Shown here: positions 19,974 to 54,584 of the stretch, one piece after another
Numbering within the stretch: the first letter of the stretch is position 1
Layout of the letters: every line of letters starts with the position of its first letter
Origin: a virus
Lineage: Duplodnaviria; Caudoviricetes
DNA length: 64,000 nucleotides
Virus record (IMG/VR): IMGVR_UViG_3300021255_001460
Coordinates: 26,107 to 90,106 of that record
Reading direction: 5' to 3' (one strand)
Program-made: the position numbers and the translations under genes
Notes under the pieces: model-generated
Databases searched by the model: none
Seen by the model: the letters and a program-made list of their open reading frames with translations, nothing else
What the model was told of the DNA's origin: nothing

Positions 19974-20405
19974 TTACATATCAATAGGGGCTTCGTGTAG
20001 CTTTTCCACAAAGTCCGTTGGTACATGATTATGTCGTCCGCACTTCACGTACTGTTCGTACATGCGCTCGAGCGAACTTCTCGTATCCAGTGATATTGGG
20101 TTCTTCTTAACACCATAGTGGACGTATGCCCAAGTCAATTTTTCGTTCTGTAGCGTAGCTGTCTGCTCGTCGGTCTGTGCCAGCCGCCCATCAATCTCAT
20201 CAAGCCGCTGAACAATCTTGTCAATCTTCTCATCAATCGATTCAATGCGTCGCTGTGCTTCAAGCTTGCGCTCTGCTCTTTTTAACACCCAGTCATGAAC
20301 GGCCTCAAACGTTTTAACAGCGCCAACGACTACGCCAATCTAGGCAATTACTCCTACGAAAGCACCCCACCCAGAAGTGAGCCACTTAACTGCTTCCTCT
20401 CCCAT
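19974..20405 (-). CDS. Holin/haemolysin-like membrane protein with an in-frame TAG at codon 22 (20340-20342)
   Basis: ATG at 20405 reads MGEEAVKWLTSGWGAFVGVIA*IGVVVGAVKTF..., in frame with the track ORF 19974-20288. Confidence 0.8.
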
Positions 20406-20427
20406 TGGTGTCACCCTACCTTATCTT

Positions 20428-23233: not shown

Positions 23234-26200
23234 TCACATAATACCTGATGTTTGATAGTCTGGTAGTGCTTCCAGTCGTTCCATTCTTGTATTGATATAA
23301 TCCTTTTGCGGTGATTTTACTTCCCAACCAAACCGCATATTGGGTGTACCACATACAATGAAGTAAGCTGGATATCTTTCTTTAACAAAGCACATGCCAT
23401 CGTCATAGGCTTGAATAAAGACTTGATACGCACTTGTACTAATAGTTTCGGCAAATACTGGATCGAGATCAACATATGCGTATCCGTCCGCACCAATTAT
23501 TCCCTCGCCAATATCTCCAAACATTGGTGTCGGTGTTTCGTATGCGGACATAGTAACCGCGCCATAATGTTCCGTGGTAAATAATCTATTCTTCTGTCCA
23601 CCACCAACTACAGTGAAATAATGGCCTGATGGAATATTCATGGATATATCGCCGTTTTGGTAAAACCGCATGTAACACCCGGCACTCTCTGCATCCGGTT
23701 CGTCGCTATATCCAAGTTCAAATGCATTTTGGTATCCAGATACACCCTGTAAAAAACCACGATAATAACCACCAGCAATGATGTTAATCGTATTATTGAA
23801 TCCGCATCTGCCATCATTCCAAAAATACATTTGCCCACCACTAGACACAAGAGTCATCGTCATCGTGCCATCGGAACTCCATACACAACTTGATGCATTG
23901 CCAATCACCATATTCCCGGCATGGTCAATAAAGCATCCGTGGGTTTGGTTTACATTTGAGGAACGAAAAGTCCAACCAGCACTCGTTGGTGGTCGAAGTA
24001 CTGTATAACTTGTACTGCCACCAATATTGGAAGCACTATATAAGTTCCCGTATTGATCAATTGTCCAACCGCCAATCTTACCGCCAGTTGCAGTAATATT
24101 ACTACACGTAACAGCGCCAGCCGTAGTTACTTGGAAAGCACCATTCCCGATATTAATCGATGCACCACTGATAGACCCACCAGTGACAGTCAGATTGCTA
24201 CAACTCACAGCACCAGCAGTAGATACGGTAAAAGCGCCGCTACCAATATTGATAGATGTACCACTGATCGACCCACCAGTGACAGTAAGGTTTGTACAAG
24301 TAACCTTACCACTCGCAGTTACCCTGAATGGCGCTGATGCAAGTGTCGAACTACCAGCATAAATAACAACATTGTCACCAGTCACACCAGAGCGCAACCC
24401 AACACGGGAAGCACCAGTGCCGCTATATAACGTATCTGTTCCGATTGTCCAACCAGCAATACTGCCGCCATTCTTTGCGGTCATATAGCCGTTTTGGTCA
24501 ATCGAGAAACCGTTGTTAATTGTGGTATGACCAATCAAGCTGATCTTGGATGCATTAATGGTCGCACCTTCGGTTGACACATTGATCGCATTGATTACGC
24601 CGTTCTGATCAACCTTTGCCGACCACGAAGATGCGTTCTGTTCAACTGTGGTCTTTACGCCGCTATAAGTATTGTTGACGGTTTGCATGATCGACTCTGG
24701 CATCAGCCTAATAGTAGTCTGCATCCCAGTGATCGTGCTGTTCGCCGACAGGTCAATGCTTTGCCCCACACCAGCCGCCAGATGACTTGCGGTAATTGTT
24801 CCAGCTTCAATTCGCGCCGCAGAAAGATAACCAGTGATTATCTCGTCGGCACTAAAGCCTCGTCCTGCACATGATTCCATTATTACTAATGGCGTAGACT
24901 ATCTCTTAATCCACTTGGGATTCAGTGCGCTTCGACTGGTAACTCATCTTCCAGCCTACATAATAGTCGTTACACCTTCCGCTTTGTTGCGGCTTGGCAC
25001 GGTATTATCCACGAAGGACTTCACCGTTAGCAACTTACGTCACACCCCTGAGTAATAGGGTTCACACTGTTTAACCAATATGTCGCCACATTGGTGGGCC
25101 TGAACGTTGACCCAAATGTTCTCCAGTTCCAATTACCGTTTTCATCTTTGCCGTTCGCGATCATAAATCCGTCGCCGCACAACATCATCGCGGCCTCATC
25201 GTTTGCCTCGACAAACATCATGTTTCCGTTGTCGTCCGTATACCATGAAGATCTGGACGACATGAACTGATGCTTCAGCACATCGATAGTTCCTTCGAGC
25301 CGCTCAGTAAATATCGAGCCATCCATATTGATAATGTTTGTGCGGTTATAAATGTCTGCTCTTGATTGCAGTTCGCTTGTTACTTCGCTGATGCGTTGCA
25401 GTACAGATCCAAGATCCTTGCCGCTCAACGAAATATCTTCATCCGTGATCTCGATCTTGTCATCCCACGGGTGATCCATATACCGTGTAATCTTCTTGAC
25501 ATACAACAGTGCATTTACGTTCAGGATTGCATCGTAAACTCGCACCTCTGTATTAATCTCAAAGTCATAGATGTCGCGCCCCAATACCTGTGCCATGTTT
25601 GTGCGGGTCACAGAGTAAGTCACAACTGGGCGGCTCATGCGTTCCATTACATTCTGGGCATCAGCATACAGGGCGGCTTCCTGACCGACAATGTAGTTCG
25701 GATTGTTCCACTTGCCATCCTTAATCAGGTCGCCCAGAGAAGAATGCATGAAGGTAGACTCCGCATCAATCTGCTGTTGCTGAATGTTCGCCACCGCAAG
25801 CGAATTTTTATACACGGTGTAAGCCAGATCAGCCGCACGATACATGATAACTTTCAGGCCAAGTTCCTTTTCGGTTGTACTTCCCCAGCCGTCATAGATC
25901 TTATTGATCTCGGTCTGAATCTCGGCTATCTGTGCGCGGTATGTGGCTTTCTTTTCCTCACTCGCTGTTGCCGCAATCATTCGGTTCAGCGACTTGATGC
26001 TCTCCTGCTTTGCCGCAATCGAAGCTTCCATCGAGCCAACCCAGCCAGCCGATGTACCAGTACCAGACTTCGACAGGGTGGCGTATTTCACCGCATACTT
26101 GTCAGTGCTGTTAAAAGTGATAGCGCCGCCAGCACCTACGGTTACCGCACGATAAACCTTGTTCGGGCCAACTACGATAACATAGTCGCCCTCGAGCAAT

Positions 26201-27246: not shown

Positions 27247-28332
27247 TTACCGCATCAGGCCATCAAAGGTGATGGTAAGTTTGGACAAGCTGGCATTTCC
27301 AGATCCGCTCTGCCCGGTAATGTTCTGCGTAGACACAATGAGTTCATTCATCTTGCCGACCAGACAAACATCGCCCTTAGTTGCTGGCATGTTCGCGTTG
27401 ATTGTACAAGAGCCGCCATCATCAGCTACCGCCAGAATCTTTCGCCAAGCGCCCTGTACGTAAATGTAACTGCCTACATCTTCTGGGAAAAACTTCGCGG
27501 TTGTTTTCAGCAAAGCAGATCCTTGAGCGCAGATCACATAAATGTCGCGCCTGTACGGGAAGCAAGGCTCAAGATTGATGTACCCTTTGTCGTGGTATGC
27601 AAACGCATAGTTCGAGCCAACCGTGATCTTCTGGTACTTACTGTCGATGACCAGATCCTGACCAGAGGGCAACCCGACAATTTCGCACGTATCATTGTTG
27701 GCGCTGTTTACGATCACAAGTTTACGGCCTGTCGGAATTGTTCCGCGCACAGTAATGGTCGCCGGGGTTGGCTCAGTGCCGGGATTCCACACAAGCTTTG
27801 TACCCATTGCAGTTGACACGGCTGGGATCATGGAGTGGCGAAGTATGCCGCAAAAAGATTCGATGCGGTACTCGTCTACCTCGTTGTCAGTGAGTTCCAA
27901 CGTGTTCATTGTGCCGAATGGATAATACGCCGTCAGGTTGAGCGTGATTGTGCCGCTATACACTGTGAGCAGATTACGGTTCGTGTGTTCCTGATAGCGG
28001 TCGCCAGTGGGCAGTTTGCTAGGCCGCACCATGTAGGTGATCCAAGGGCGCTCGTCAAAAACCAGTTCGCCCAGTACGCCAACGTGAACCCACTGGTAAA
28101 TCTTGTCAAGCTGTGCATCGGTCAGGTCTTCAAAGTAGCAGTACAAGCTGAAGTCCTTTTGCTGAACGGTCGCCCCATTATAATAAGCGCCGGGAAAGTT
28201 TGTTACTGTTGCTGTGTTCACTTTGTACGGTGTGCCAGCATCCAGCAATGTCTTGGAATTGGGTATATAGGTCTATCCCATCTCGGTACAGTGGATGCCG
28301 CGAAAAGTAAACCCCATCACATCCGCTTTCAA
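27247..28332 (-). CDS. Distal tail (Dit)-like protein with an in-frame TAG at codon 20 (28273-28275)
   Basis: Reads MKADVMGFTFRGIHCTEMG*TYIPNSKTLLDAG..., in frame with the track ORF. GFTFxGxH is the usual Dit N-terminus, and the gene follows the tape measure gene. Confidence 0.85.
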
Positions 28333-38980: not shown

Positions 38981-40803
38981 TTACCAGTCAACTGTGCTGG
39001 CGCTGGACTTGGTTACCATGTCGCCCTTGTTGTCGAAAGGCTCAAAAATCATACGGTTGGTACGCTTATCAGCACGTTTCGGGTCGATAACAGAGAAGGT
39101 AATGCTGTTGGTTGCATGAGACTTGTCATTGATCTTCAACATGATTCGCTACGTCATGTCCGCTTTTCAGCCGCTATGTGTCACCACATATGATGAGACT
39201 ATATCTTCACCCTCGCATCTCAGCGTAGGGGTCTTCCCATTTCAGCTTCGCTTGAAGCTTACTCTACTCGCTTCTTCCTGCATATCCTTGTATGCATTCT
39301 GCTTTCGATAGTCGTTAGGCTTTTATAAAACATCATCAACATATTCCCAATGGTAACCGCCACATTTATATCCGGTCTTACAAGCCCTCGTCAGATTGCC
39401 TCGCGACACATTATATTTTGTAGCGGCATCAACCATAGTATAGAAAACTTCGTTGGTTTCAATACAACGAATTGTTCGATGACAAGTAGCAATTACTTGT
39501 TCAACCGTCTTTGCTTTGAACTCAGCATCCTGCCATCTTGCTGTTGCCTGTTCAGATCTTCGTTTGCGTTTTTCTGGATCTTTCCAAGCACTCTTCATTC
39601 TCCGCTTCATATCATCTTTATACTGCGGATCACTCCATTGACGAATCAAATTGTCAATGTTTGGAATGTTCCCGCCGCCACTTATATTGTAGCCATACTG
39701 ATGATCTGTTGCGTTGAATTGAGTAATCAGTTCAATTTCCTTGCGGCAAGCTTCGTCGTATGTCAACCCGGTATATAAAATTTTGTGATCAAAATTTTCC
39801 CACCCATATTTCTGAATTGCTTTCCAGAACTATGTGCAAGACTGATATCGTTTACCATCAGATCCCCAACGATGTGTTGGTTTCTGACAAGTAATACCAA
39901 TATACACCTTACCATTAATACGATTGGTATGTTGATAAACTATATACTTCTTATTCACTTGTACCCCTTAATAACAAGTGATGATGTTTTACTTCAGCAC
40001 GGTAGGTTTTCTTTACACTGCAACCTATGGTGTAAAGACGTTCCCCGTTTAAGGAAGATATTTTTCATAAACATTACTGTTTACGCAACCTGTTTTGTTA
40101 AGCTGTTGTCGAATCCGGGAGCGGCGGTAGCACGTACCTTGTAGAACAGCCAGTGGAGCATACCCTTGAGAGTAGCTTCGGAGCAGTCCGTGCCGCTGGA
40201 GTACAGAGGCCAGTGAGCAGTCAGAGAACCCTTTGCCATCGTGCTGTCGGTGTACTCGTTCAGTTCGTAGCCATTCACAACCCGGCGGGTATAGAATACA
40301 CGGAACTCATCGCCAACCGCAACATCGGAAGCATTGAGTGTGATCTCGGTCTTGCCAGCAACTTCAGCAGTAGAAGCAGTGATAGCAACCTTGAACTTGC
40401 CTTCTGCGGCGGTTTCCTCTTCGGTTTCCTCAAGTCCGCGAATATACACAGAACCAGCTTCAACCTCGAACGGCAGTACGACCTTCGGGCCAGTCTCAAC
40501 CTGAACCAGCGTGGCTTCATCAACACCAGCGTCAACAACTTCGATTTCAGCGTTGTTCGCCATCATGAAGATATCCATCGTGAACAGAGAAGAAGCGAAG
40601 GTAATTTCAACAGTCTTATCAGTTTCGATGTAAGCCAGCGGCAGAGACTTCTGACCACCAGTGATAGTAACGACGTTATTGGTACGACTGATAGATGCGG
40701 TGTTCACTTCGTCAAAATGGAAGTGTACACCATCACAACGAGTAAAGTCCTAGTCAGGGTTATCAACAATATAACCCTCATACTTGGGAATATAAATCGC
40801 CAT
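38981..40803 (-). CDS. Major tail (tube) protein, exons 40803-40101 and 39126-38981 (~282 aa), with an in-frame TAG at codon 18 (40750-40752)
   Basis: SD GGGAGG; reads MAIYIPKYEGYIVDNPD*DFTRCDG.... Splicing gives APGFDNS-Y-KSHATNSITFSVIDPKRADKR...VDW*. Confidence 0.85.
39127..40100 (-). mobile_element. Group I intron (974 nt) carrying a homing endonuclease
   Basis: P1: exon CAGCU pairs with IGS GGUUG. Core elements TTAAACGGGGAACG, AACCTACCGTGCTGAAG, CTAACGACTATCGAAAG and GAAGATATAGTCT; terminal G at 39127. Confidence 0.92.
39323..39958 (-). CDS. GIY-YIG homing endonuclease (C-terminal NUMOD1-like domain) with an in-frame TAG at codon 43 (39830-39832)
   Basis: GTG start; YIVYQHTNRINGKVYIGIT...RW...CT*FWKAIQKYGWENF...EIELI...YGYNISGGG; C-terminal CKTGYKCGGYHWEY. 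Confidence 0.88.
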
Positions 40804-41369: not shown

Positions 41370-42056
41370 TTATATAAACGAATCCCAGTCAATCGTGTCG
41401 TCAGGCACATAACCCCAATCGGTAAATGCGTCTGGGGCATCATAATTATTCCTATGATCAACACTGCTGTGAATAGCCATATTATTCAACGTCGCCGCAA
41501 ATGCTTGTGGTATAAAACTAGCCAGTGCATTTTGTAAAATATCCTTCGCCTTGTGTTCCATATTCTGTGCGGCATCTTCGATATAATACTGTCCTTCTTC
41601 TGGCAAGATTTTCATATAACCAAGAACATCATGTGCAGATTTTGACTTGCTCAATTCCCTTCCAGACAAATCGTGATTCCATACTTCCTGACCCGGTTTC
41701 GTGAGCAACGTGCCATCCTCGTCTGTATTACCTTCTTGGATCACAAGACTGCGTTCCTTTACATATGGCTCAACAGCATCTCCAAGACCAGCACGAATAG
41801 TAATCACAGCATCATTCATCTCTGGCTTGAACGTTTTGTTGGAATCATCAATTGCTTGTTGGACACTGCGTACCCAATCCTGAGTCTCCTTCACACGTTC
41901 AACACCATGACTATTTGTATACGATCTATGTTCAAGGTTCATTGTGTCGGCGGCAATCCGTACAGTCTTCTTCAACTCTTCAGCAAACTCATTTTGAATT
42001 TCCTGACATGCACCAGCCAGTCTATTTGCCACGGCATTAACAACACTTTCAGCCAT
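41370..42056 (-). CDS. Putative neck/tail-completion protein
   Basis: Position in the head-tail joining block; ATG overlaps the upstream gene end. Confidence 0.5.
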   Translation of the reverse strand: MAESVVNAVANRLAGACQEIQNEFAEELKKTVRIAADTMNLEHRSYTNSHGVERVKETQDWVRSVQQAIDDSNKTFKPEMNDAVITIRAGLGDAVEPYVKERSLVIQEGNTDEDGTLLTKPGQEVWNHDLSGRELSKSKSAHDVLGYMKILPEEGQYYIEDAAQNMEHKAKDILQNALASFIPQAFAATLNNMAIHSSVDHRNNYDAPDAFTDWGYVPDDTIDWDSFI

Positions 42057-42888
42057 TGACAACACCACCCTGAACACGTTTGCCGTACACAACAATCACA
42101 CCGTGTTTCTTATGAATATCCACCTCGGCAGTAGATATATCAACCGCACGATATGTGAACTTATGGATAACAAACTCATCGTCAATCATGAGTTGCTTCG
42201 TCTTATCATTCCACTGGAGCGAAACCGTAATCAAGTCGTTCGGCGTAATACCCGGAATGGCAGTACTTGCAGAATAGTCAGGTCTGCCTTGGTACAACGT
42301 CCAGCTTGCCGGGATGTTGTCCACAATGACCAGCCGCCCACGTTTGTCCAGATCCACGCCCGTCTTATGAATCACAAATCCGTTCTCGTCGGTGGGCGCT
42401 TCATACTTCCGTGTAAACGTCAGGTAGTTGTTGCACTCTGTACTCTGCGTCGCCAGATTGTTCGCGTGGTTCATTACGTTCCAGCTACAGAGGAACACAA
42501 CACCATCTTCGCGGATGACATAATCACCCTTGTGGATCTCCAGTGTCCGCTCCACTTTCAGGTTGGTGGACATATCGGAGTTGCCGATCTTGGATTTCCA
42601 GTCAATAGGTGTTTGCTGACCGCGAAAGAAAAGCCCCGGAGTCTGGCGGTTGTACCAGTCATGAATCATCTCGAATGTATAATTTACACCGGGTTTATAT
42701 TCAAGCAGTTCGTTCTTCCAGTCAGAATACAGGGTTTCCGGGTCGAGGAATCTGTCGCCATTGTATGCCTGTTGATTGTAGGTCACACTGGCTTCGACTT
42801 CCTCTTTTGTGCCGATACTTATATGTGAACCCGCTGAAGTAACGTAGTCGGGCTACTCACTCCTGCGGACTGCAAATACCTTGCCCAT
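42049..42888 (-). CDS. Putative head-tail joining protein; probable start 42888 with TAG at codon 12 (42853-42855), alternative GTG start 42786
   Basis: SD GGTGAG and ATG read MGKVFAVRRSE*PDYVTSAG...ASVTYNQQAY..., in frame with the track ORF. Confidence 0.6.
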
Positions 42889-43198
42889 CTGTCTCACCAC
42901 TCTCGTTACGGAGTCGTAGATTATCAGGAAGGCGCTCAATCTCTCCTGCCTTGTCCAGCAGTTTGTGCTTGATGGCACAGTACTTCGCCCACGTATCATC
43001 CGTCCAGTCATTCTTTGACGAACCGTTTGTGGCTCGATAAATGACATCTTCGACATCCGTGATCAATGTCCACAAATTGTTGCGGAAGATGTTGCACCAC
43101 TCGCGCAGAGGATACAGATCGTTCGACACTTCCTTCATGTCGCGATCATGTTCCACAACATTGACGTATACTTTCTGCATGATCCTTAATCCTTTCAT
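42857..43198 (-). CDS. Hypothetical head-tail region protein
   Basis: Coupled ORF in the morphogenesis block. Confidence 0.65.
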   Translation of the reverse strand: MKGLRIMQKVYVNVVEHDRDMKEVSNDLYPLREWCNIFRNNLWTLITDVEDVIYRATNGSSKNDWTDDTWAKYCAIKHKLLDKAGEIERLPDNLRLRNESGETDGQGICSPQE

Positions 43199-44146: not shown

Positions 44147-45169
44147 TTACGCTCTGGTGTCGTGGAACACGCTCATGTAAGGACGGTCGCCGTACACAAT
44201 GCCAGCGCCGAATTCCTGATCGAGGCGTACTTCCCAAGTCTTGTCGTCGATGTTCTGACCTTCCATAGACACAACATCGCCAGCAATGTGGATCTTCAGA
44301 GGCCGCATCTCAGGATCAACAGCGCGAGGCAGGATATACAGGTTCTTCGTGGACAGGGCGGGAGTATCAGTGCCAGCCAGATACGGGTTGGCAAGAGTTA
44401 CAACATCCTGACCCTTATAACGTCCGATGAAACCAAACATGTTCTGCTCTTCGATAATACCGTTAGCGAACTGCACAGTAGCAGGAGAATTCACGGTAGC
44501 GAATCCGGTCAGGGCGGCAAGTTCAGAAGTCTGAGCAATATCGCCAAGGATGGTCGCGCCACCCATTCTTGCCCAGAACTGGACAACGGGATCGAGCAAC
44601 TGAGCATTCACACCAGCCCCACTCACATAGTAAGGAGAAGCCATAGCGGTTGCATTGTACTGGGAGTCGAGAACGTTGCCGATGTAGCCCAGCATAGCAT
44701 TTTCCATTTCAATGCCAGCGCGGACAACCATCTTGGGCAGGTTAGCCACATTGCGGATCAGTTCGGAATAGTTCACAGCAGGACGAGCAGAAACCGCAAC
44801 AGTGTCCAGAATTACGTTCTTGGAAGCCATGCGGCTACGAGGCGTGGTAGCATCCAGCGCCTGAATATAAGCATGTACGCCTTCCAGTTCAGCCTTGAAG
44901 ACAGGATGATCACCAGCGGCGGTACGCTTGGTATCAGCAATCCGGTCGAGGAAATCAGTGCGCGGCTGGAGATAATCGGTCACAGCATAGCCGATCAGCT
45001 GTGCCATCAGATAACGGTTGTGCGGATTGGGATTCTCAGCCAGCATCTTGATGGTAGCTTCCCAGTTGGCACGGACTTCGGAATCAATCTTTTCGTTATT
45101 GGACTGGGCAACCAGTACCTTTACGACATTGTCATCGCGGACAATCCGTTCAATCTTCACATTTTCCAT
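44147..45169 (-). CDS. Major capsid protein
   Basis: 340 aa; follows the protease/scaffold and decoration genes; followed by the hairpin AAGGGGAATGG...CCAACCCCCTT. Confidence 0.8.
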   Translation of the reverse strand: MENVKIERIVRDDNVVKVLVAQSNNEKIDSEVRANWEATIKMLAENPNPHNRYLMAQLIGYAVTDYLQPRTDFLDRIADTKRTAAGDHPVFKAELEGVHAYIQALDATTPRSRMASKNVILDTVAVSARPAVNYSELIRNVANLPKMVVRAGIEMENAMLGYIGNVLDSQYNATAMASPYYVSGAGVNAQLLDPVVQFWARMGGATILGDIAQTSELAALTGFATVNSPATVQFANGIIEEQNMFGFIGRYKGQDVVTLANPYLAGTDTPALSTKNLYILPRAVDPEMRPLKIHIAGDVVSMEGQNIDDKTWEVRLDQEFGAGIVYGDRPYMSVFHDTRA

Positions 45170-46940: not shown

Positions 46941-48548
46941 TTATCCAGTTTGTGCCTGAGATCCTTCAGGGTTACTTGGTTTGGGTTGTCTTCCTGTCTG
47001 GGAATTGGTCGGGTCGCTCTGCCGCACAGAAACATCAAGTGTAGGTCTGCCACGCTCCGCTTCCGCTTCGCTATCGTTGCCGCCAGAAGAATTACTGGTC
47101 GCGCCAGTTTCCTCAACAGAAAGAATCTTGTCGATGCCGTTAGCCTTTTCATCCTTCTTGCGCTCGACTTCCTGCTTCATATCAAATCCATGAGTCTGGA
47201 GCAATGTTTCGCGGCTAACAACACCTTTGTCATACAGTGTGCGGCAGATCTCCTGAAACTGTTTACTTCCGTTCAGATCAACTGGTGGGAAGGTAAACTC
47301 AGGGATCTTGTCTGGCGATCCGTGAGCAATACCCCGGAAACCCGGTTCGTTCAGCCGCCTGTTGATCTTGTTCATCATGTTGCAGAACAGATCACGGGCA
47401 ACCTTGATCCTGATAGCCGCCGTCTGCATACTCACCTGTGCTGTTGCAAAGGTTGAGGATGAAGATGTGTTGCCGCTCACCATGATCTCGGAAATACCAC
47501 CAGCCGCCAGAATCTGCTGGTTCACACTGTTGTACTTTTCATAATGGAACAGTTCGTCAAGGTCGGGCTGAATAAAGTCGGCCTGTGCCCAAGTGTTTGT
47601 TACCACAAGAGCAGATCCGGTCATGGCTTTCTTGAAGCCTTCCTTAATGGCGTTCAACTGTTCGTTATTCGGTAGCACCTGTCCGTCCTTGTCGCCATAG
47701 CGCACATGAACGAAAGACCGCATACCAAGCCGCAAGTTGGCATCTTCCCAGTCGCTGATCTTGCGCTTCTTTGCCAGCGGCATTAAAGCGGAAGCAATCA
47801 TCGGCACTGAGTATTTCTGCCACTCTTCTTTCGGCTCTTGTAATGTGAACGTGTGTCGGGGATCAAGCTGAACCCAAGGCATACTGTTTCGTATAGCCAT
47901 CGCAATCTCGGGCGGGTAACCACATAGCCTGACAGAAAGATCTTTATCATCGATCACATTGTTGGCGGTGGTGAAACTATCAAAGCCAAGATCGTTGACT
48001 ACCGACATGACATCGTACTCGAGAACAGGTTCTCCACCGATTGCCACGCCACAAATCCTTATATTATGAGGCGGCAGTGTAATTAATCTGCCGTCATCAA
48101 AAAGATAAGAATACACATTGGAATACTTGAAATACTGCGTAAATACAGACAACCTGTAGTTCGTGAAGTTGTGCTGTTTGTAATACGTCATGTATTTCTT
48201 CTTGGTCGCCTCGTCAGCGCCCACAAGCTTCGGATCATCGGCACAGGCGAAAGGTATGTAAACCTCGCGCAGAATGCCACGGTAGATCGAATCATAATCG
48301 TAGTAGTAATCACTCAGTTTGAACAGCCTGTTGATGTTGTGCTGTTTGTCTCTGAGGATTGCGTCATAATCTGTATCTTCGATCTATCCAACCTGTGCGA
48401 CCCGGTTCTCGGAGAAAGTCAGCGTGATATCGTTGTCACTCACCACGCCAAGATCTTTCCGTGCAGTAGGCATCCCAGTGGTATTTGTGCCAGTGCTGAT
48501 CTGAGGTGTTCTTGTGAACAAACTCGCCAGCCTCGGGAATATTGCCAA
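46941..48548 (-). CDS. Portal protein (~535 aa) with an in-frame TAG at codon 55 (48384-48386)
   Basis: SD GAGGAG and TTG at 48548; reads ...SENRVAQVG*IEDTDYDAILRDKQHNINRLFKLSDYY..., in frame with the track ORF; directly downstream of terL. Confidence 0.82.
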
Positions 48549-48567
48549 CGGTGTTCACGCTCCTCTC

Positions 48568-50313
48568 TTACATGTAATCGACCAGAACGATGCATTCGTC
48601 TGACGATCCACTTCTATATTTTCTAGTCCTCTCGTCTTCAAGATCCGCAATAAAAGCGAGTCCGTAAGACAATGAGGAATAACGGTCTTTATGCTGGGTG
48701 GATTTGGCAGTGCCAATAATCGGGTAACCGCTTGCGCTAGGCCGCGACACAATGTTGCCCATCTCGATCTGGAGCGCATCTGCTTCGTACAGGATTGCGA
48801 TCTCCTCGGTAGTTAACTTGTGGCGGTTATCCTCGCCCTCTTCAATGATTGTGCCGTCCTTCGATACGGTAACACGTTCGGTTGAAGCATCAGCGATCTT
48901 GCCGTTAACCAAGCGCCGCGACTCAACTGGCAGTTCCAGCGTACCCTTCTCAAGCGCAATCGTGGTCACGTTCACACACTTCTGGTTGAACGCATTGTTT
49001 GCATCGATTGCTCTTAACAGCGGCACAGCGTTCTGAATGGAATAAGGATCTGTATCAAGTACCAGCGGCGGGTACTCCTTGCCAGTATTTGGATCAAGCC
49101 AAGGCTCGGAAAGGAACTGAGGGAAAGCGTTGCCCACACCATGATGGTCGAATACGACTTTAATGGTTCGCGGGAACTTCACCAGTAGCCGCCTCAATTC
49201 ATCTGCCAACATGGTCAACGTGTAACCGTGATAGGTTCGCATGTAAACCAGCTTTCGCTTGATGAATCCTTCGCCAGCATCAATCAGCTTGATAATACTG
49301 ATTGCGGTATTGTCAGCAGAGGTCGCACCTGACACAGCAATATCGATTGCTATTACGTAGTCGGCCTTGCTTCCTGCTGGCATCGCCACTTCCACTTCTT
49401 TTAATGTGCGGCACTTCTGTGTCTTCTCATACGGGAACAGACTGCCCGACTCCGCACCAAGGAAGATGGACTCATATTCTGTCATCCACTTCTCTTCGGT
49501 CATGCGCTCTTTCTGATCCAAGAACCACTCTCGCGAGGTGATCCCGATTCGTGCAGAGCATTCCCAGTTCAGCGCACAGGCGAACACTCCGTCGCTCCGT
49601 TTGGTAGGATCGGCGATTCGCTTGAGTGCGTCGGTAAACTTATCGTAGAAGTGGTTGCTCTTCAGACAGGCTGATGTGATACTGCACACCGCAGAAGGAT
49701 GATCCTTGAAGCCGTGCTGAATTGCCACGCCGCGAGTTGTGTTCAGAACGGGCAGTGCAACAGCTTCCCAGTCTGCCGCATTGACTTCCGGGGCTTCGTC
49801 TATGATTAACAGCTTGGCACGGTTGCCACGGAATGTGCCGATGGAGAACGATTCAATAATCGAACCATTCTTCAGCACACAGCGCCCCTTGGCTCGTGTT
49901 AAGCTGACAGGACGGCGACCGCCGCTACAATTGATCTCACGCAACACGTTTTCGTTGCGAATGAAATCAGACTCGATCTTACGCAGAACCAGTGTCGCCT
50001 GTTCGCCAGTGCCAGAGATAACAGCCACCATGCTCCCGGGCCACAGCACTGCGTATGCGAGGCAACATACTGCCACCACCCAAGTCTTGCCAGCGCCACG
50101 GTTGTTGACCATCAGAACTTCTTTGCCGTTGCCAATCATCCGCGCCTGAATCTTTTGGGTGTCTTTTAACTTTATCTTGAAGTACTGTTCGATAAAGACA
50201 TCAAGATGCGTTCGCCAGTAATGAATCAGGAGTGCGACCGCCTGTGGATCTTTGATCTCATGACCGTTAATGCTCGGCTTAATCTTGCCGCTCTATAAAG
50301 CTTGCGAAATCAT
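48568..50313 (-). CDS. terL: Terminase large subunit (~581 aa) with an in-frame TAG at codon 7 (50293-50295)
   Basis: ATGA overlap with the upstream gene; MISQAL*SGKIK...YWRTHLDVFIEQYFKIKLKDTQKI, Walker A RGAGKT, Walker B LLIIDEA, nuclease IAIDIA and HKDRYSSL. Confidence 0.92.
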
Positions 50314-51203
50314 AAGACAGCGCCCACCGCCTCTTCAACATGGCGATAGTCTTCCAAGATCTTATCCACATCGTCGGGTGGAAACTCAACACCCTCGAAG
50401 TTATCCGGTGTCAGTACATCGATCTCTTCAAGCCACTCGGCAATCTCGCCCAGCGAATCAAATGAACCGCTATCATTGTTCCTCTTGGAAGCGGGAGCAA
50501 TGTTTGCAGTCTTCATCAGATCGTTGAACACGTTCTTGGCGGTTTCCCACTCTTTCAGCGTTGCCTTGCCCTGACACATCTGGTTGTATACATGGTCGGT
50601 AAAGACCTGCGCTTTAACGATCTGCCGCACATAAGTATCCTGCACGGGATCGTCCTTCAATGTGTCGTCCGGGTTGTAGCGCTTATACACATCATTCAGA
50701 ATCTGAAGGTAATCTTGTGAGAAGAAGCCGCCCCATTCAGGACTATAGATTTTCTTTTCCGCTTCGGTTGCCTCGTCAGCTTTCGGCGCTACATCCTCTT
50801 CGGTGTAACTTTTATCCTGATGATTTACGTAGCGGTAGTAGGCTTTGCCGTTCATTATCCCGAAGAATGCTTGAGCCGCAACATGGTTGAAGATCTTCAG
50901 CCTGTTCGCCTCATTGGCCTCGAGGTATTCAGCATCGGTCGCCACCTTGTACTGGGCTTTTGTAACCAGCGTGTTCCACCAGTTATCATTCCACAGTCTG
51001 TTGTTGTCGTGGCAATAAACTTGCAGATCCTCGAGCGAATTGACATACTTGTTCGCACAATCTTTGCACCAAGCATCATGGTACGACTGCGACTGCCAAT
51101 CCTGATTCTTGTAGAAATCTGTTAGCGGAAGCACTTTTCCGCACCGCACACATAGCTTGCTTGGCACTTTTGCTTTTACTGTTTCCTTTGCTACTCGCGC
51201 CAT
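50310..51203 (-). CDS. Zn-finger protein upstream of terL (small-terminase position)
   Basis: CVRCG...WCKDC motifs; translationally coupled to terL. Confidence 0.55.
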   Translation of the reverse strand: MARVAKETVKAKVPSKLCVRCGKVLPLTDFYKNQDWQSQSYHDAWCKDCANKYVNSLEDLQVYCHDNNRLWNDNWWNTLVTKAQYKVATDAEYLEANEANRLKIFNHVAAQAFFGIMNGKAYYRYVNHQDKSYTEEDVAPKADEATEAEKKIYSPEWGGFFSQDYLQILNDVYKRYNPDDTLKDDPVQDTYVRQIVKAQVFTDHVYNQMCQGKATLKEWETAKNVFNDLMKTANIAPASKRNNDSGSFDSLGEIAEWLEEIDVLTPDNFEGVEFPPDDVDKILEDYRHVEEAVGAVL

Positions 51204-51229: not shown

Positions 51230-51272
51230 AAAAAACACTACAACACTGCTTGGGATTACAGTGTCGTAGTGT
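51230..51272 (-). terminator. Intrinsic terminator just upstream of the packaging genes
   Basis: ACACTACGACACTG-TAATCCCAAG-CAGTGTTGTAGTGT-TTTTT on the minus strand. Confidence 0.65.
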
Positions 51273-51480
51273 TGTAGTGTAGTGTTATTGGCAGGTAAAT
51301 TTGAAAGGAGATGTGGAGGACTAACCATGAGTAAGGCTGGCGCAATCCCAATTTTGTAGCCAGCACGTAACAATCAATCTATGTGGCGGCTTGAACCGAT
51401 TCATTCCACCGCCAGAATTTTGACACATGTTTCAGTGCGGTATAGCTTCTATATACTCGCCAGTATGGCGCTATACAAGC

Positions 51481-52065: not shown

Positions 52066-52163
52066 TACGGGGAGTGGGATTCGAACCCACAAGAATCAGG
52101 TGAAAGTGCCTGATTTTACTGGGATTTTAGAAATCCTTGACTTTGCCGTTTGCCTATCCCCGC
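52066..52163 (-). tRNA. Amber suppressor tRNA (anticodon CUA), class II, leucine-type body
   Basis: GCGGGGA TA GGCAAACGGCAAAGTC A AGGAT-TTCTAAA-ATCCC [30-nt variable arm, stem AATCAGG/CCTGATT] GTGGG-TTCGAAT-CCCAC TCCCCGT A. G1.U72, A73, A15:U48; CCA is not encoded. Confidence 0.9.
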
Positions 52164-52196: not shown

Positions 52197-53390
52197 TTAT
52201 TTCACCTTAATTGGGTACACGCACCGTCTGCCATACCCATTTTCGATCACCATCGCAGTAGCACCCGGACATGCCCCACGCTCCAAGCTTTGTGCGTACT
52301 TATCAATGCCGCACAAAGAAGGAACACGGACAATGGTCGAGTGACCGTCTGGTGAAGTACCAACCGAAAACTCTGCGTCGTTGTGGAGATGCCCAACCAC
52401 AAAGTAATCAATTGGTTCACCATATAGGTTGATGCTGTCACGAGCCAGATCAGTAAGTGTCTTGCCACTGATACTGTCGCCATGCATCAACATAAATTTG
52501 TAGCCGCACACTTCGACCAGTTTACGCCGCTCACAATCGGAACAGATCTCAATATTGTCTATTCCATCCAGCCGCGCTTTCAAGTACCAGATAACGATAC
52601 GCTCGAGGTTCTCATCCTCGAATTCGCGCGATTTGGCTCGGAGTGGTCGGACTTCAGAATGGTTGCCGCTCACAGCGTAAACCTTAATCTGAGTTCCAAA
52701 TCTGGCTAAGTGTTTCAGCCACAACGCAAGGTGTTCGCCAAGTTTCATTACCTGATCGACAATGCCGTACTCAAGTCGCGTCAGTTGACTTTGCCGCAAC
52801 ATTCCATCAATCAGGTCGCCTACGAGGAAGATGTTCATGGTGGCAATCTTTTCTTTTCCAAGAATCAACTCAGTCTGCATCGCCACTTGCAACATCCGGT
52901 GAACGAATATATCTGAGTTGTACACGTTCATCTTCTCGCCACGTAAGCCGCGCACTTCAATGTCCGCACCAAAGTGAAAGTCTCCAAGGGCAAGAACAAG
53001 TTCTTTGGATTCAGCTTTGGATTCGACTTTGCTTTCAGCTTCGCGACTGGCGGCTTCAAACTCTCCCCGCAAGTCAGGCATTGCTTTCGCGGCTCGTTCA
53101 ATAGCGTTTGCTAATTCTGTTCGCCGCGCATCGCTTCTGCGGTAAGCCATAACTTCATTACGAAGATCACGGAGTGTCTGCTCTTTCGCGAAGTTGTCGC
53201 CTTCGCACCGCATCACTGCATCCGCAAGCATTACTCCAACGCCAGCCTTCCGCAGTGTATCGGGGCTGACATCAAGGTGGTACTTCTCTACAAGATCAGC
53301 CCACTCATATTCTGTCAGACCATTCTTCTTTGCCACAATATCTTCAACGAGCAAAGCCTGATCTTCTCGTGTAAGTTCTGTCTAAAGCAT
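52197..53390 (-). CDS. Calcineurin-like metallophosphoesterase with N-terminal helical domain; in-frame TAG at codon 3 (53382-53384)
   Basis: LGDFHFG, VGDLIDG, SGNH, MHGD and VGHLH motifs; SD GAGGT then ATG CTT TAG ACA GAA..., in frame with the track ORF. Confidence 0.8.
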
Positions 53391-53420: not shown

Positions 53421-54164
53421 TTACGCCGCGACAGCTACGCTATCAATCTTCGCAAACTTCATATCAAAAAATACCGGGTCAGCTTGCGCGGATTCCGGTA
53501 TTCCCGCAATGACGAAATCCATTTTGTAGAAGTCGCCATTCTTGGTTTCCACTGGAGCATATTGCTTCGCGGCCTGTAGATCAATCTTCCACACCTTGCC
53601 GCCCAGTGAAAATGTTCCGTCAGTTTGCACGACGCAACGTATGAAGTTCTTGATTCGATAGTCTCGCCTCGCCGCACAAACTAATGTGTAGCGGTCTGGC
53701 TTTCTGCTGTGCCTCGGCTTCGGCATCCTTGCTCTGGTCACCTTTTCTCTGAGTTTGGGCGGCATCTCGTTATCCCAGTCATCTGCCATGCGGTTGAAAG
53801 CAATTCTTTGGTTGCGGTCAACCTTTGTCATGTCCAGATCCTGATTGGACTCGATCATGTCCTGATAGTCAAACGGGCAAGACGAAACCGGAATCTCATG
53901 TGCGTTGATTACCGCGCTCTTGTATGCACTGATCACATCATCCTGACCCCCACATAGCAGGAATGTTCCCAGTGAATCAAGGAAGCGCCGCACCTTATCT
54001 CCCGGAGTTATCATGCCGCCAGAACTGTTATCCCAATTCGTCAGGCAATAAGATTCCCAGCGGTTCAGTAAGTCATTCGCGATCTTCTCCCGCTCTTCAG
54101 CAGTAGTGGCTTTCACCATTTCCGCTCGTCCACGGGGAGTCGCTATGTGATAGCCTCTCGCCAA
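53421..54164 (-). CDS. Hypothetical protein
   Basis: SD GGGGAGGGG and TTG at 54164. Confidence 0.65.
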   Translation of the reverse strand: MARGYHIATPRGRAEMVKATTAEEREKIANDLLNRWESYCLTNWDNSSGGMITPGDKVRRFLDSLGTFLLCGGQDDVISAYKSAVINAHEIPVSSCPFDYQDMIESNQDLDMTKVDRNQRIAFNRMADDWDNEMPPKLREKVTRARMPKPRHSRKPDRYTLVCAARRDYRIKNFIRCVVQTDGTFSLGGKVWKIDLQAAKQYAPVETKNGDFYKMDFVIAGIPESAQADPVFFDMKFAKIDSVAVAA

Positions 54165-54584
54165 TGAAATACCCCTCCCCATATATAATATCAAAAGTTA
54201 GTCGCTTAAAACGCAGTTTTTCAACGAAAAATTTTAAAAAATTTACAATTGTGCAAATTCGTCAACTTTGTTTTGAGTTTTTCGCCCGGATCACATCGCA
54301 CGATTCGTAGAGCGGCACAGCTTCGTTATCCAGAAACACTTCAACAAAAGCAAAAGAACTGTTGCCGAAACATGTCATCACGTACCCAACCCTCATCTGG
54401 CGATCAAGTGACTCGAGGAAATCGTGCGTCCACCAGACATGCCCATCATCCTTAGTCATCCGCTCCAGATACGCAGGAGAAACATTGATGGCGGCAAGCC
54501 CTTCCAATAACTCGCCGCCACCAAGATAACGCTTCGCCATCAGTTCCGTACAGTATCTGCCGCCACAAATTGTACACAGCGGCC

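Follow-up and report, generated by a model that had tools for sequence, protein, structure and literature searches.

In the 64,000-nucleotide stretch of Caudoviricetes DNA analyzed here (the window; positions 26,107 to 90,106 of IMG/VR record IMGVR_UViG_3300021255_001460), the neighboring genes for the large terminase subunit (terL) and the portal protein each carry an in-frame TAG near the start. Are these genes broken, do their proteins begin past the TAG, or is the TAG read through, and if so, as which amino acid and to what end? The early amber codons in both genes were first pointed out in a sequence-only reading of the window and are confirmed here (Table 1). The window was compared with 80 related IMG/VR loci, and alignments were built with about 70 TerL and portal proteins of relatives. 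Judging from these sequence comparisons, we think it probable that both genes are intact, that their TAG is read by a phage-encoded tRNA, most likely as leucine, and that the arrangement serves as a translational checkpoint.

Table 1. Features of the window considered in this work, in window coordinates
Feature	Position	Strand	Remarks
Late gene	19974-20414	minus	TAG at codon 25
Dit	27247-28332	minus	TAG at codon 20
Tape measure gene, 2903 aa	28674-37385	minus	single TAG, codon 36
GIY-YIG endonuclease	39323-39958	minus	TAG at codon 43
Late gene	40081-40803	minus	TAG at codon 18
Late gene	42049-42888	minus	TAG 42853-42855, codon 12 from ATG 42886-42888; start uncertain
Major capsid protein, HK97 fold	44147-45169	minus	TAG-free; AlphaFold2 model, pLDDT 78
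Head-module gene, 149 aa	45184-45633	minus	TAG-free
Head-module gene, 403 aa	45640-46851	minus	TAG-free
portal	46941-48548	minus	535 codons including one TAG predicted to be read through; TTG start at 48548
portal in-frame TAG	48384-48386	minus	codon 55; next base A
terL	48568-50313	minus	581 codons including one TAG predicted to be read through; ATG start at 50313
terL codons 8-58	50139-50292	minus	free of start codons; YWRTHLDVFIE block and K50/Q53 Q (adenine-binding) motif
terL in-frame TAG	50293-50295	minus	codon 7; next base A
First packaging-operon gene, TerS position	50310-51203	minus	N-terminal HNH/EndoVII-like match; TAG-free; stop overlaps terL start
Terminator-like 16-bp hairpin and T-run	51234-51273	minus	between tRNA unit and packaging operon; pattern match
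tRNA, anticodon CUA	52066-52163	minus	RF00005 (Rfam) match at 44.8 bits; gathering score 29
Metallophosphoesterase-type exonuclease	52197-53390	minus	TAG at codon 3 (53382-53384); adjoins the tRNA on its upstream side

Conserved sequence around the terL and portal TAG codons

The ATG of terL overlaps the TGA stop of the preceding gene (ATGA, 50310-50313), and the MISQA N terminus that it opens is also found in loci about 51% identical. Codon 7, where the TAG lies, is a variable column of the alignment. As the sequence-only reading had it, no ATG, GTG, or TTG occurs between this TAG and the YWRTHLDVFIEQYF segment; the first in-frame start is the ATG at 50139 (codon 59), and no Shine-Dalgarno sequence is visible past the TAG. 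The stretch up to Met59 is anything but dispensable in appearance: YWRTHLD, K50, and Q53 all lie within it and are nearly invariant among TerL proteins, and the Q motif sits about 20 residues ahead of Walker A (RGAGKT, residues 72-77). The protein matches phrog_2 (terminase large subunit) at 2.6e-22. A profile of TerL relatives also matched T4 gp17 (3EZK; E value of 3.5e-4), and in this comparison the RDYQRD segment of gp17 aligns with Q53 and RGAGKT is aligned as well. DEAPEV is invariant across the alignment. The elements of a TerL ATPase center, namely Q motif, Walker A, Walker B, and family homology, are all predicted to be present. TerL homologues are 553-562 residues long and span 97-99% of the read-through protein, aligning from about residue 8.

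The TTG start of portal lies 20 nt past the terL stop and is preceded by AGGAG. Its N terminus fits the M-G/A-[FLI]-[FW]-x-R conserved among relatives, some of which also use a TTG start. The next in-frame start past the TAG is a GTG at 48224 (codon 109); the amber at codon 55 and the lack of ATG, GTG, or TTG before codon 109 had both been noted from the sequence, and both hold. The protein matches phrog_2739 (portal protein) at 8.3e-33, with residues 57-519 on profile positions 46-494 of 501, such that residues 57-108, i.e. those before Val109, fall within the match. In about 70 portal homologues the alignment extends to either side of codon 55, a variable column with Asp, Glu, or Ser in most homologues; in two relatives (L047 and L066) this column also holds a TAG. 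With near-full-length family homology and terL adjoining, the gene product has the predicted features of a portal protein. At a threshold of 1e-3, Pfam yielded no match to TerL, portal, or the products of the head genes.

The same phage is also represented by another sample (L001), an independent metagenome copy in which terL differs by 62 nt and portal by 55. This divergence of 3-4% is synonymous, TerL is 99.8% identical, and both TAGs are retained. Because L001 keeps both despite the nucleotide differences, the TAGs are not a product of chance or error. The near absence of protein change points to purifying selection on both genes. Among the 80 related loci, 39 have an in-frame TAG in terL or portal, and TAA or TGA never occurs in those alignments. 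These comparisons support the interpretation of terL and portal as intact genes that would require read-through of an early amber.

The suppressor tRNA and the amino acid at TAG

The tRNA with anticodon CUA is the sole tRNA of the 90-kb record. It was found by the Rfam model only; ARAGORN detected none, whether in the window or across the entire contig, and a blastn search of this tRNA against the 80 related loci gave no match. It has a variable arm of about 29 nt with a 7-bp stem and discriminator A73, and CCA is not encoded. CUA tRNAs of relatives were detected by ARAGORN, many of them at a syntenic spot about 2.3 kb upstream of terL, and the core of the window tRNA is most similar to these syntenic tRNAs. 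The suppressor tRNAs of relatives are 74 to 92 nt long and in some cases have a short variable arm, and on account of this variation a single clade-wide amino acid identity cannot be assumed. ARAGORN labels the tRNAs of relatives as tRNA-Pyl, an effect of the anticodon only. Pyrrolysine decoding was considered for the window tRNA and, on tRNA shape, judged improbable, as its variable arm is very long, unlike the very short loop of tRNA-Pyl. Promoter and terminator matches near the tRNA do not exceed the number expected from shuffled sequence. The record yielded no release-factor gene; as it is about 78% complete, further translation factors could lie outside our view.

The identity of the inserted residue was approached through TAG-free relatives. 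At 61 TAG columns, these relatives have leucine in 44% of cases against a background of 7%, and glutamine is depleted (1.3% against 3.9%). Several of the columns are entirely leucine, in 63-70 of 63-70 homologues. Seen from the other side, a leucine of the window proteins faces 141 of 276 distinct TAG sites. In this phage, codon 3 of the exonuclease corresponds to Ile or Leu in homologues, and codon 18 of gene 40081-40803 to Ile, Leu, or Val. Because both terL codon 7 and portal codon 55 are at variable columns, the leucine assignment rests on the other sites and on relatives.

Gene callers and the literature assume glutamine by default, as in the published code-15 phages, and terL codon 7 does align with Gln in four relatives beginning MISQAEQ. 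The depletion of glutamine at TAG columns and the invariant leucine at many of them speak against this assignment, as does the tRNA itself. Glutamine tRNAs are class I, with a short variable loop, whereas the variable arm here is long. With TAG seldom opposite Gln and a tRNA of this shape, we give the glutamine reading little credence; TAG is most likely read as leucine by the phage tRNA(CUA). Literature searches turned up no case of TAG read as leucine in phages.

Distribution of TAG among early and late genes

The two packaging genes are part of a genome-wide pattern. About 10 in-frame TAGs occur in 90 kb, no more than one to a gene and close to its start; a virion structural gene at the tail-tube position is among the genes that carry one. 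TAG terminates none of the 36 late genes but does terminate two early genes, a recombinase and an exonuclease. In a 680-aa early ORF, an apparent TAG in mid-gene was examined as a further candidate and rejected: there are two genes, of which the first ends in TAG. As in recoded phages, in-frame TAG is concentrated in late genes, and TAG is a true stop in early genes. Reading TAG as sense adds no more than about 1.3 kb of coding sequence (the sum of the 5' extensions), or 1.4% of the 90.1 kb, and the marked gain in coding density that is the usual screening criterion was not found. Seven neighboring genes had no match in PHROGs. The base after TAG is a purine in 75% of cases clade-wide and A at 6 of the 9 sites of this phage; first codon positions are purine-rich in general, irrespective of TAG.

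The same 5' placement is seen across relatives. The first TAG lies within the first 100 residues in 33 of 34 unique recoded terL sequences, and of 29 distinct terL TAG positions, 15 belong to the opening quarter of the gene (binomial P of 0.0018). TAG makes up 19-31% of leucine sites in the first 50 residues and 1-5% further on. Of the 47 loci that carry TAG in some other late gene, 37 carry it in terL too, and these terL TAGs occupy at least 15 different early positions. TAG counts are continuous among relatives, running from 1 to 32 over the 16 genes tested.

Proposed read-through with a checkpoint and its alternatives

We predict that the tRNA(CUA) would be charged by the host leucyl-tRNA synthetase, an enzyme that does not read the anticodon. 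Until the tRNA is present, termination by host RF1 would end terL translation after 6 residues and portal translation after 54, and neither gene would offer a shorter product that functions. Once it is present, translation would run on to the complete TerL (581 aa) and the complete portal protein (535 aa). The terL and portal TAGs would belong to a genome-wide design in which TAG acts as a stop in early genes and as sense in about nine late genes. A likely role of such a checkpoint is to tie packaging, virion, and lysis proteins to tRNA expression, and packaging would probably wait on tRNA production.

Several other accounts of these codons have to be weighed. That the genes are broken, in a defective phage or through assembly error, has nothing but the stops themselves in its favor; the same TAGs in the independent copy with its 3-4% synonymous divergence, the restriction of in-frame stops to TAG, and the matching tRNA(CUA) leave it next to no probability. 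A closer competitor in form is that TAG is a true stop and that shorter proteins are made from Met59 of TerL and Val109 of portal or from a noncanonical start after the TAG. Standard-code gene callers give exactly those shorter ORFs, and a 523-aa form of TerL is recorded in 17 contigs (P0003). Yet the stretches that would be skipped are conserved, including the TerL Q motif and the portion of portal within the portal profile, in-frame conservation extends ahead of both TAGs, terL offers neither a start codon before Met59 nor a visible Shine-Dalgarno sequence, and the phage encodes a suppressor tRNA. Moreover, functional homologues beginning at 50139 and 48224, which had been named as the result that would count against amber interruption, did not appear: in the alignment, TerL and portal relatives continue across the TAGs and align ahead of both points. 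We therefore consider shorter products highly improbable.

Among readings that accept read-through, the proposal made from the sequence alone was that the gate singles out components that are low-copy, rate-limiting, or toxic and leaves head proteins needed in many copies ungated. Its factual basis is sound, as the capsid gene and the two neighboring head genes (one noted as a putative scaffold) indeed lack an in-frame TAG in this genome and terL and portal do not; the capsid model matches phage capsids by Foldseek (E value of 5e-11, probability of 1.0). The proposed targeting does not follow, however. In this same phage TAG also occurs in the structural gene at the tube position, in the genes for the tape measure protein and Dit, and in those for an exonuclease and a GIY-YIG endonuclease, and in recoded relatives so does the major capsid gene (24 of 25, usually in the first quarter), which makes the TAG-free capsid gene a peculiarity of this genome without significance. 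The 149- and 403-aa head genes have TAG in 12 of 27 and 21 of 28 related loci, and TAG density in head genes of recoded relatives equals that of terL and portal. Given a TAG in about 10 of the 36 late genes, chance would spare the three named genes about 4 times in 10 by our own arithmetic, and we find a gate specific to such components very doubtful. More weight, although still short of being likely, attaches to read-through that is real but serves no gate: once a leucine suppressor has arisen, TTG could drift to TAG and costly TAGs be purged, with early ones surviving since failed suppression there wastes only a short harmless peptide. The continuum of TAG counts, the prevalence of leucine sites, and a set of TAG-bearing genes that differs between relatives, capsid included, all fit such drift, and the 5' bias can be explained by it without a regulatory role. 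Set against it are the recurrence of terL TAGs at many early positions in 37 of 47 loci, which suggests repeated gain or retention; the roughly one TAG per gene regardless of length, with a single one in 2903 tape-measure codons; and the keeping of TAG stops in early genes together with their absence from the 36 late genes. Read-through by the phage tRNA with a checkpoint role is the explanation that we favor.

Implications

If this explanation holds more widely, the phage would represent a clade of rumen- or gut-type phages of roughly 60-120 kb in which TAG is leucine in a stage-specific manner and a tRNA-Leu(CUA) licenses the late program; we lean, if only slightly, toward this broader view. 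In such a clade, genes for terL, portal, capsid, tail, and lysis functions would each usually contain a single TAG, located no further than a few dozen codons from the start, and the clade would offer the first natural phage reassignment of amber to a residue other than glutamine. Because the gain in coding density is tiny, recoding screens and gene callers would be expected to miss the clade and truncate its genes. Both standard and code-15 gene calling would err, the former with a 523-aa TerL without its Q motif and the latter by putting Gln at probable Leu positions. Recoding this sparse, at about one TAG per gene, evades density-based detection. Since early terL TAGs recur at differing positions across lineages, the idea that recoding times late genes could be tested here in a minimal system of one tRNA and about ten codons. 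The predicted natural leucine-type amber suppressor, with its variable arm of about 29 nt, may also interest genetic-code engineering.

Comparison with known systems

Stop-codon recoding with a phage suppressor tRNA is of a known kind; what is new is TAG as a probable leucine codon and its sparse use, about one early TAG per late gene. In the Borges preprint (published as PMC9197471), the only recodings differing from the host are TAG to Gln and TGA to Trp, and 26-71% of genes have many in-frame stops; a 5' positional bias is not mentioned there. The present phage is like the published recoded phages in having TAG inside terL, portal, tape measure, and other late genes, a phage tRNA(CUA), early genes including a recombinase in the standard code, and a proposed role in late or lytic timing. 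It differs from them in its leucine signal, in having about 10 TAGs, one per gene and near the start, and in the 5' bias. The phages of a theta-ribozyme study (PMC10879173) also have amber suppressor tRNAs tied to a code switch. Predicted isotypes of their tRNA-Sup(CUA) are Gln (69%), Trp (19%), Ile (10%), and Tyr (1%), with Leu absent (PMC10879173); unlike that set, the window tRNA has its long variable arm. No ribozyme family reached the gathering score in the window in an Rfam search.

The closest precedents for leucine come from elsewhere. TAG encodes Leu in NCBI genetic codes 16 and 22 (chlorophycean and Scenedesmus mitochondria), the same codon change but organelle-wide, whereas here it would be a stage-specific phage device. 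The Escherichia coli suppressor supP (Su6) inserts leucine at amber codons, and laboratory amber phages are conditional-lethal. With amber mutants the present phage shares an early amber in an essential phage gene and predicted expression only with a suppressor tRNA. Synthetic suppressor-tRNA gates, reported as engineered leak dampeners (PMC7969014), follow the same logic. Unlike amber mutants and such synthetic gates, the arrangement described here is natural, phage-borne, and repeated across genes and lineages.

Early in-frame TAG codons in the packaging genes

The record is linear and 90,106 bp long, with an estimated completeness of ~78%, and its bases 26107–90106 make up the window. Late genes form a long minus-strand block running from ~58200 down to 19200, and in it terL and the portal gene each carry an early in-frame TAG (table). 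Re-reading of the frames showed the coordinates and codon numbers of the sequence-only reading, which had called both genes amber-interrupted, to be correct; terL reads ATG ATT TCG CAA GCT TTA TAG AGC GGC AAG and is open thereafter. The gene identities are likewise borne out, with the 581-aa read-through TerL matching phrog_2 (terminase large subunit, 2.6e-22) and the read-through portal matching phrog_2739 (portal, 8.3e-33; residues 57–519 on profile positions 46–494). A profile of TerL relatives also found T4 gp17 (3EZK) in the PDB (E 3.5e-4).

Features of the packaging region and early genes (L082 and L083 are stretches outside the window; G000:C1 denotes whole-record coordinates)
Feature	Position	Strand or class	Remarks
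terL start	ATG 50313	(-)	ATGA overlap with TGA stop of preceding gene
terL TAG	50293–50295	(-)	codon 7
terL next in-frame ATG/GTG/TTG	50139	(-)	codon 59
portal start	TTG 48548	(-)	20 nt past terL stop; AGGAG upstream
portal TAG	48384–48386	(-)	codon 55
portal next start codon	GTG 48224	(-)	codon 109
tRNA(CUA)	52066–52163	(-)	late strand
terminator-like hairpin	51273–51234		16 bp, with T-run
capsid gene	44147–45169		340 aa
gene in small-terminase position	50310–51203
tyrosine-recombinase-like gene and phrog_1366 gene	L082:129–2168 (G000:C1:7728–9767)	early	~18 kb before window; TAG between, in frame, ~8 codons apart
exonuclease gene (phrog_69)	L083:146–955 (G000:C1:18445–19254)	early	true TAG stop; overlaps DNA polymerase gene start

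In neither gene do functional homologues begin at the next start codon after the TAG; relatives align upstream of both positions. A protein search returned hundreds of TerL relatives of 553–562 aa, covering 97–99% of the read-through form, and thirteen residues are near-invariant in the alignment between the TAG and Met59 (I30, Y32, W33, R34, T35, H36, D38, F40, I41, K50, Q53, A57, and R58). In the gp17 alignment, Q53 corresponds to the RDYQRD segment, ~20 residues ahead of Walker A. In terminase ATPases, this segment is the Q (adenine-binding) motif; judged by this alignment, a TerL started at Met59 would be without it. The MISQA N terminus upstream of the terL TAG also occurs in five loci (L021–L024 and L056) that are themselves only ~51% identical. 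For portal, ~70 homologues in related loci can be aligned without a break, beginning ~20 residues ahead of the TAG and running well past codon 109, and the extreme N terminus, M/L-A-I-F-P-R, matches the M-G-[FLW]-[FW]-x-R starts of relatives, in two of which a TTG start is plausible. On sequence comparison, the two TAGs are not damage or error, because a second copy of this phage, L001, recovered in a different metagenome, retains both despite 62 nucleotide differences in terL and 55 in portal (TerL, 99.8% identical).

In the small-terminase position, the N-terminal part of the encoded protein matches HNH/endonuclease VII-like zinc fingers (phrog_2340, phrog_1035, and phrog_2255, E ~1e-6), and a small-terminase match to this gene was not found.

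A putative leucine-inserting suppressor

The tRNA 1.75 kb upstream of terL scores 44.8 bits with the Rfam tRNA model (gathering score 29) and has the anticodon loop UUCUAAA and therefore the anticodon CUA. It is the sole tRNA in the record, in which (at ~78% completeness) no release-factor gene was found. A ~29-nt hairpin stands where the variable loop would be, the discriminator base is A, and CCA is not encoded. ARAGORN reported no tRNA in the window or the whole contig, probably because of this arm, and pipelines based on it would score the phage as suppressor-free. Many relatives have a syntenic CUA tRNA of 74–92 nt, ~2.3 kb upstream of terL, and it is these that the core of the window tRNA most resembles. 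Four relatives (L017:2235–7507, L004, L079, and L063) have arrays of 10–21 tRNA genes upstream of terL, always with a CUA tRNA among them, whereas the window phage keeps the suppressor alone. The terminator-like hairpin between the tRNA and the packaging operon, just upstream of the latter, suggests separate transcription units; this hairpin and a promoter-like match ending 14 nt ahead of the tRNA 5' end are pattern matches no commoner than in shuffled sequence.

When the TerL alignment was used to scan IMG/VR, 80 loci were recovered, 39 of which have in-frame stops in terL or portal, all TAG. Genes were read through and unique sequences aligned, yielding 61 columns with TAG in at least one phage. 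TAG-free sequences have Leu in 44% of these positions (background 7%), Ile in 10%, Val in 6%, Met in 5%, and Gln in 1.3% (background 3.9%), and several TAG columns are otherwise invariant Leu (63/63, 68/68, 70/70, 69/69, and 64/64). Counted over 16 late genes, there are 276 distinct TAG sites, 141 of them opposite a Leu in the window's own proteins. The window's own TAG sites give a mixed signal: codon 3 of the late exonuclease gene and codon 18 of gene 40081–40803 lie opposite I, L, or V, and the columns of the terL TAG (codon 7) and the portal TAG (codon 55) are variable and carry little information on the residue. A long variable arm and A73 are class II features of Leu tRNAs. Because of the Leu at TAG columns, the long variable arm, and A73, the simplest reading is that tRNA(CUA) would be a leucine-inserting amber suppressor.

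Placement of the TAGs and a possible late-gene gate

About nine late genes of the window phage have exactly one TAG each, between codons 3 and 55; the 2903-codon tape measure gene has its one at codon 36. The clade as a whole shows this tendency too: 34 unique terL sequences are recoded, and in 33 of these the first TAG comes within the first 100 residues, while the first quarter of terL holds 15 of its 29 distinct TAG positions (P 0.0018). TAG takes 19% (terL) and 31% (portal) of Leu sites in the first 50 residues and 1–5% later, and in some relatives it sits at codon 3 of terL or at codon 6–7 of portal. For gene 42049, the start is uncertain (window 42786–42924): the likely ATG (42886–42888) overlaps the previous gene by ~30 nt, the TAG (42853–42855) is just beyond that gene's stop, and only three relatives aligned there.

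We infer that, early in infection, RF1 would stop translation at the terL and portal TAGs (codons 7 and 55, respectively), and nothing useful would be made; as the tRNA accumulates and is charged by host LeuRS, ribosomes would pass the TAG to give full-length proteins. A 5'-proximal TAG would keep abortive products short. As translation of terL would be coupled to that of the preceding gene and portal lies 20 nt behind, early termination may also reduce downstream gene expression. The main alternative to such a gate is that the phage may simply tolerate TAGs that have no use; the 5' bias would then arise because a failure costs less when it happens early in a gene.

If there is a gate, its targets are not the low-copy, rate-limiting, or toxic components proposed in the sequence-only reading, because the capsid and head genes carry TAG in recoded relatives. 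The capsid gene, which encodes an HK97-fold protein (model pLDDT 78; Foldseek E 5e-11), is indeed TAG-free in the window phage; its homologue has a TAG, mostly in the first quarter, in 24 of 25 recoded relatives. The two neighboring head genes have a TAG in 21/28 and 12/27 relatives. TAG density is about equal across late genes, at 3–5 per 1000 residues. With recoding defined by 14 other late genes, which avoids circularity, 47 loci qualified, and TAG is present in terL in 37 and in portal in 31 of them. Several relatives (L033, L034, L038, L045, L052, L055, and L006/L061) have a CUA tRNA and TAG-free terL and portal genes. They have just 1–3 TAGs in total, most of which lie in their counterpart of window gene 53421–54194, and recoding in them may be minimal or incipient.

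Comparison with other recoded phages

The Borges preprint reports only TAG→Gln and TGA→Trp in phages with a code unlike that of the host, the isotype survey (PMC10879173) lists Gln, Trp, Ile, and Tyr, and Gln is assigned in phAss-1; our literature search found no report of TAG→Leu in phages.

On the late strand, none of 36 genes ends in TAG; on the early strand, the tyrosine-recombinase-like and exonuclease genes do. A 680-aa read-through ORF was rejected, as it consists of the recombinase (residues 17–322) and the separate phrog_1366 gene (residues 342–642); such a fusion could arise once the suppressor is active. The Borges preprint describes early genes that keep the host code and late genes that use the altered one, and the window phage is like those phages in having TAG as a stop in early genes and a changed code in late genes.
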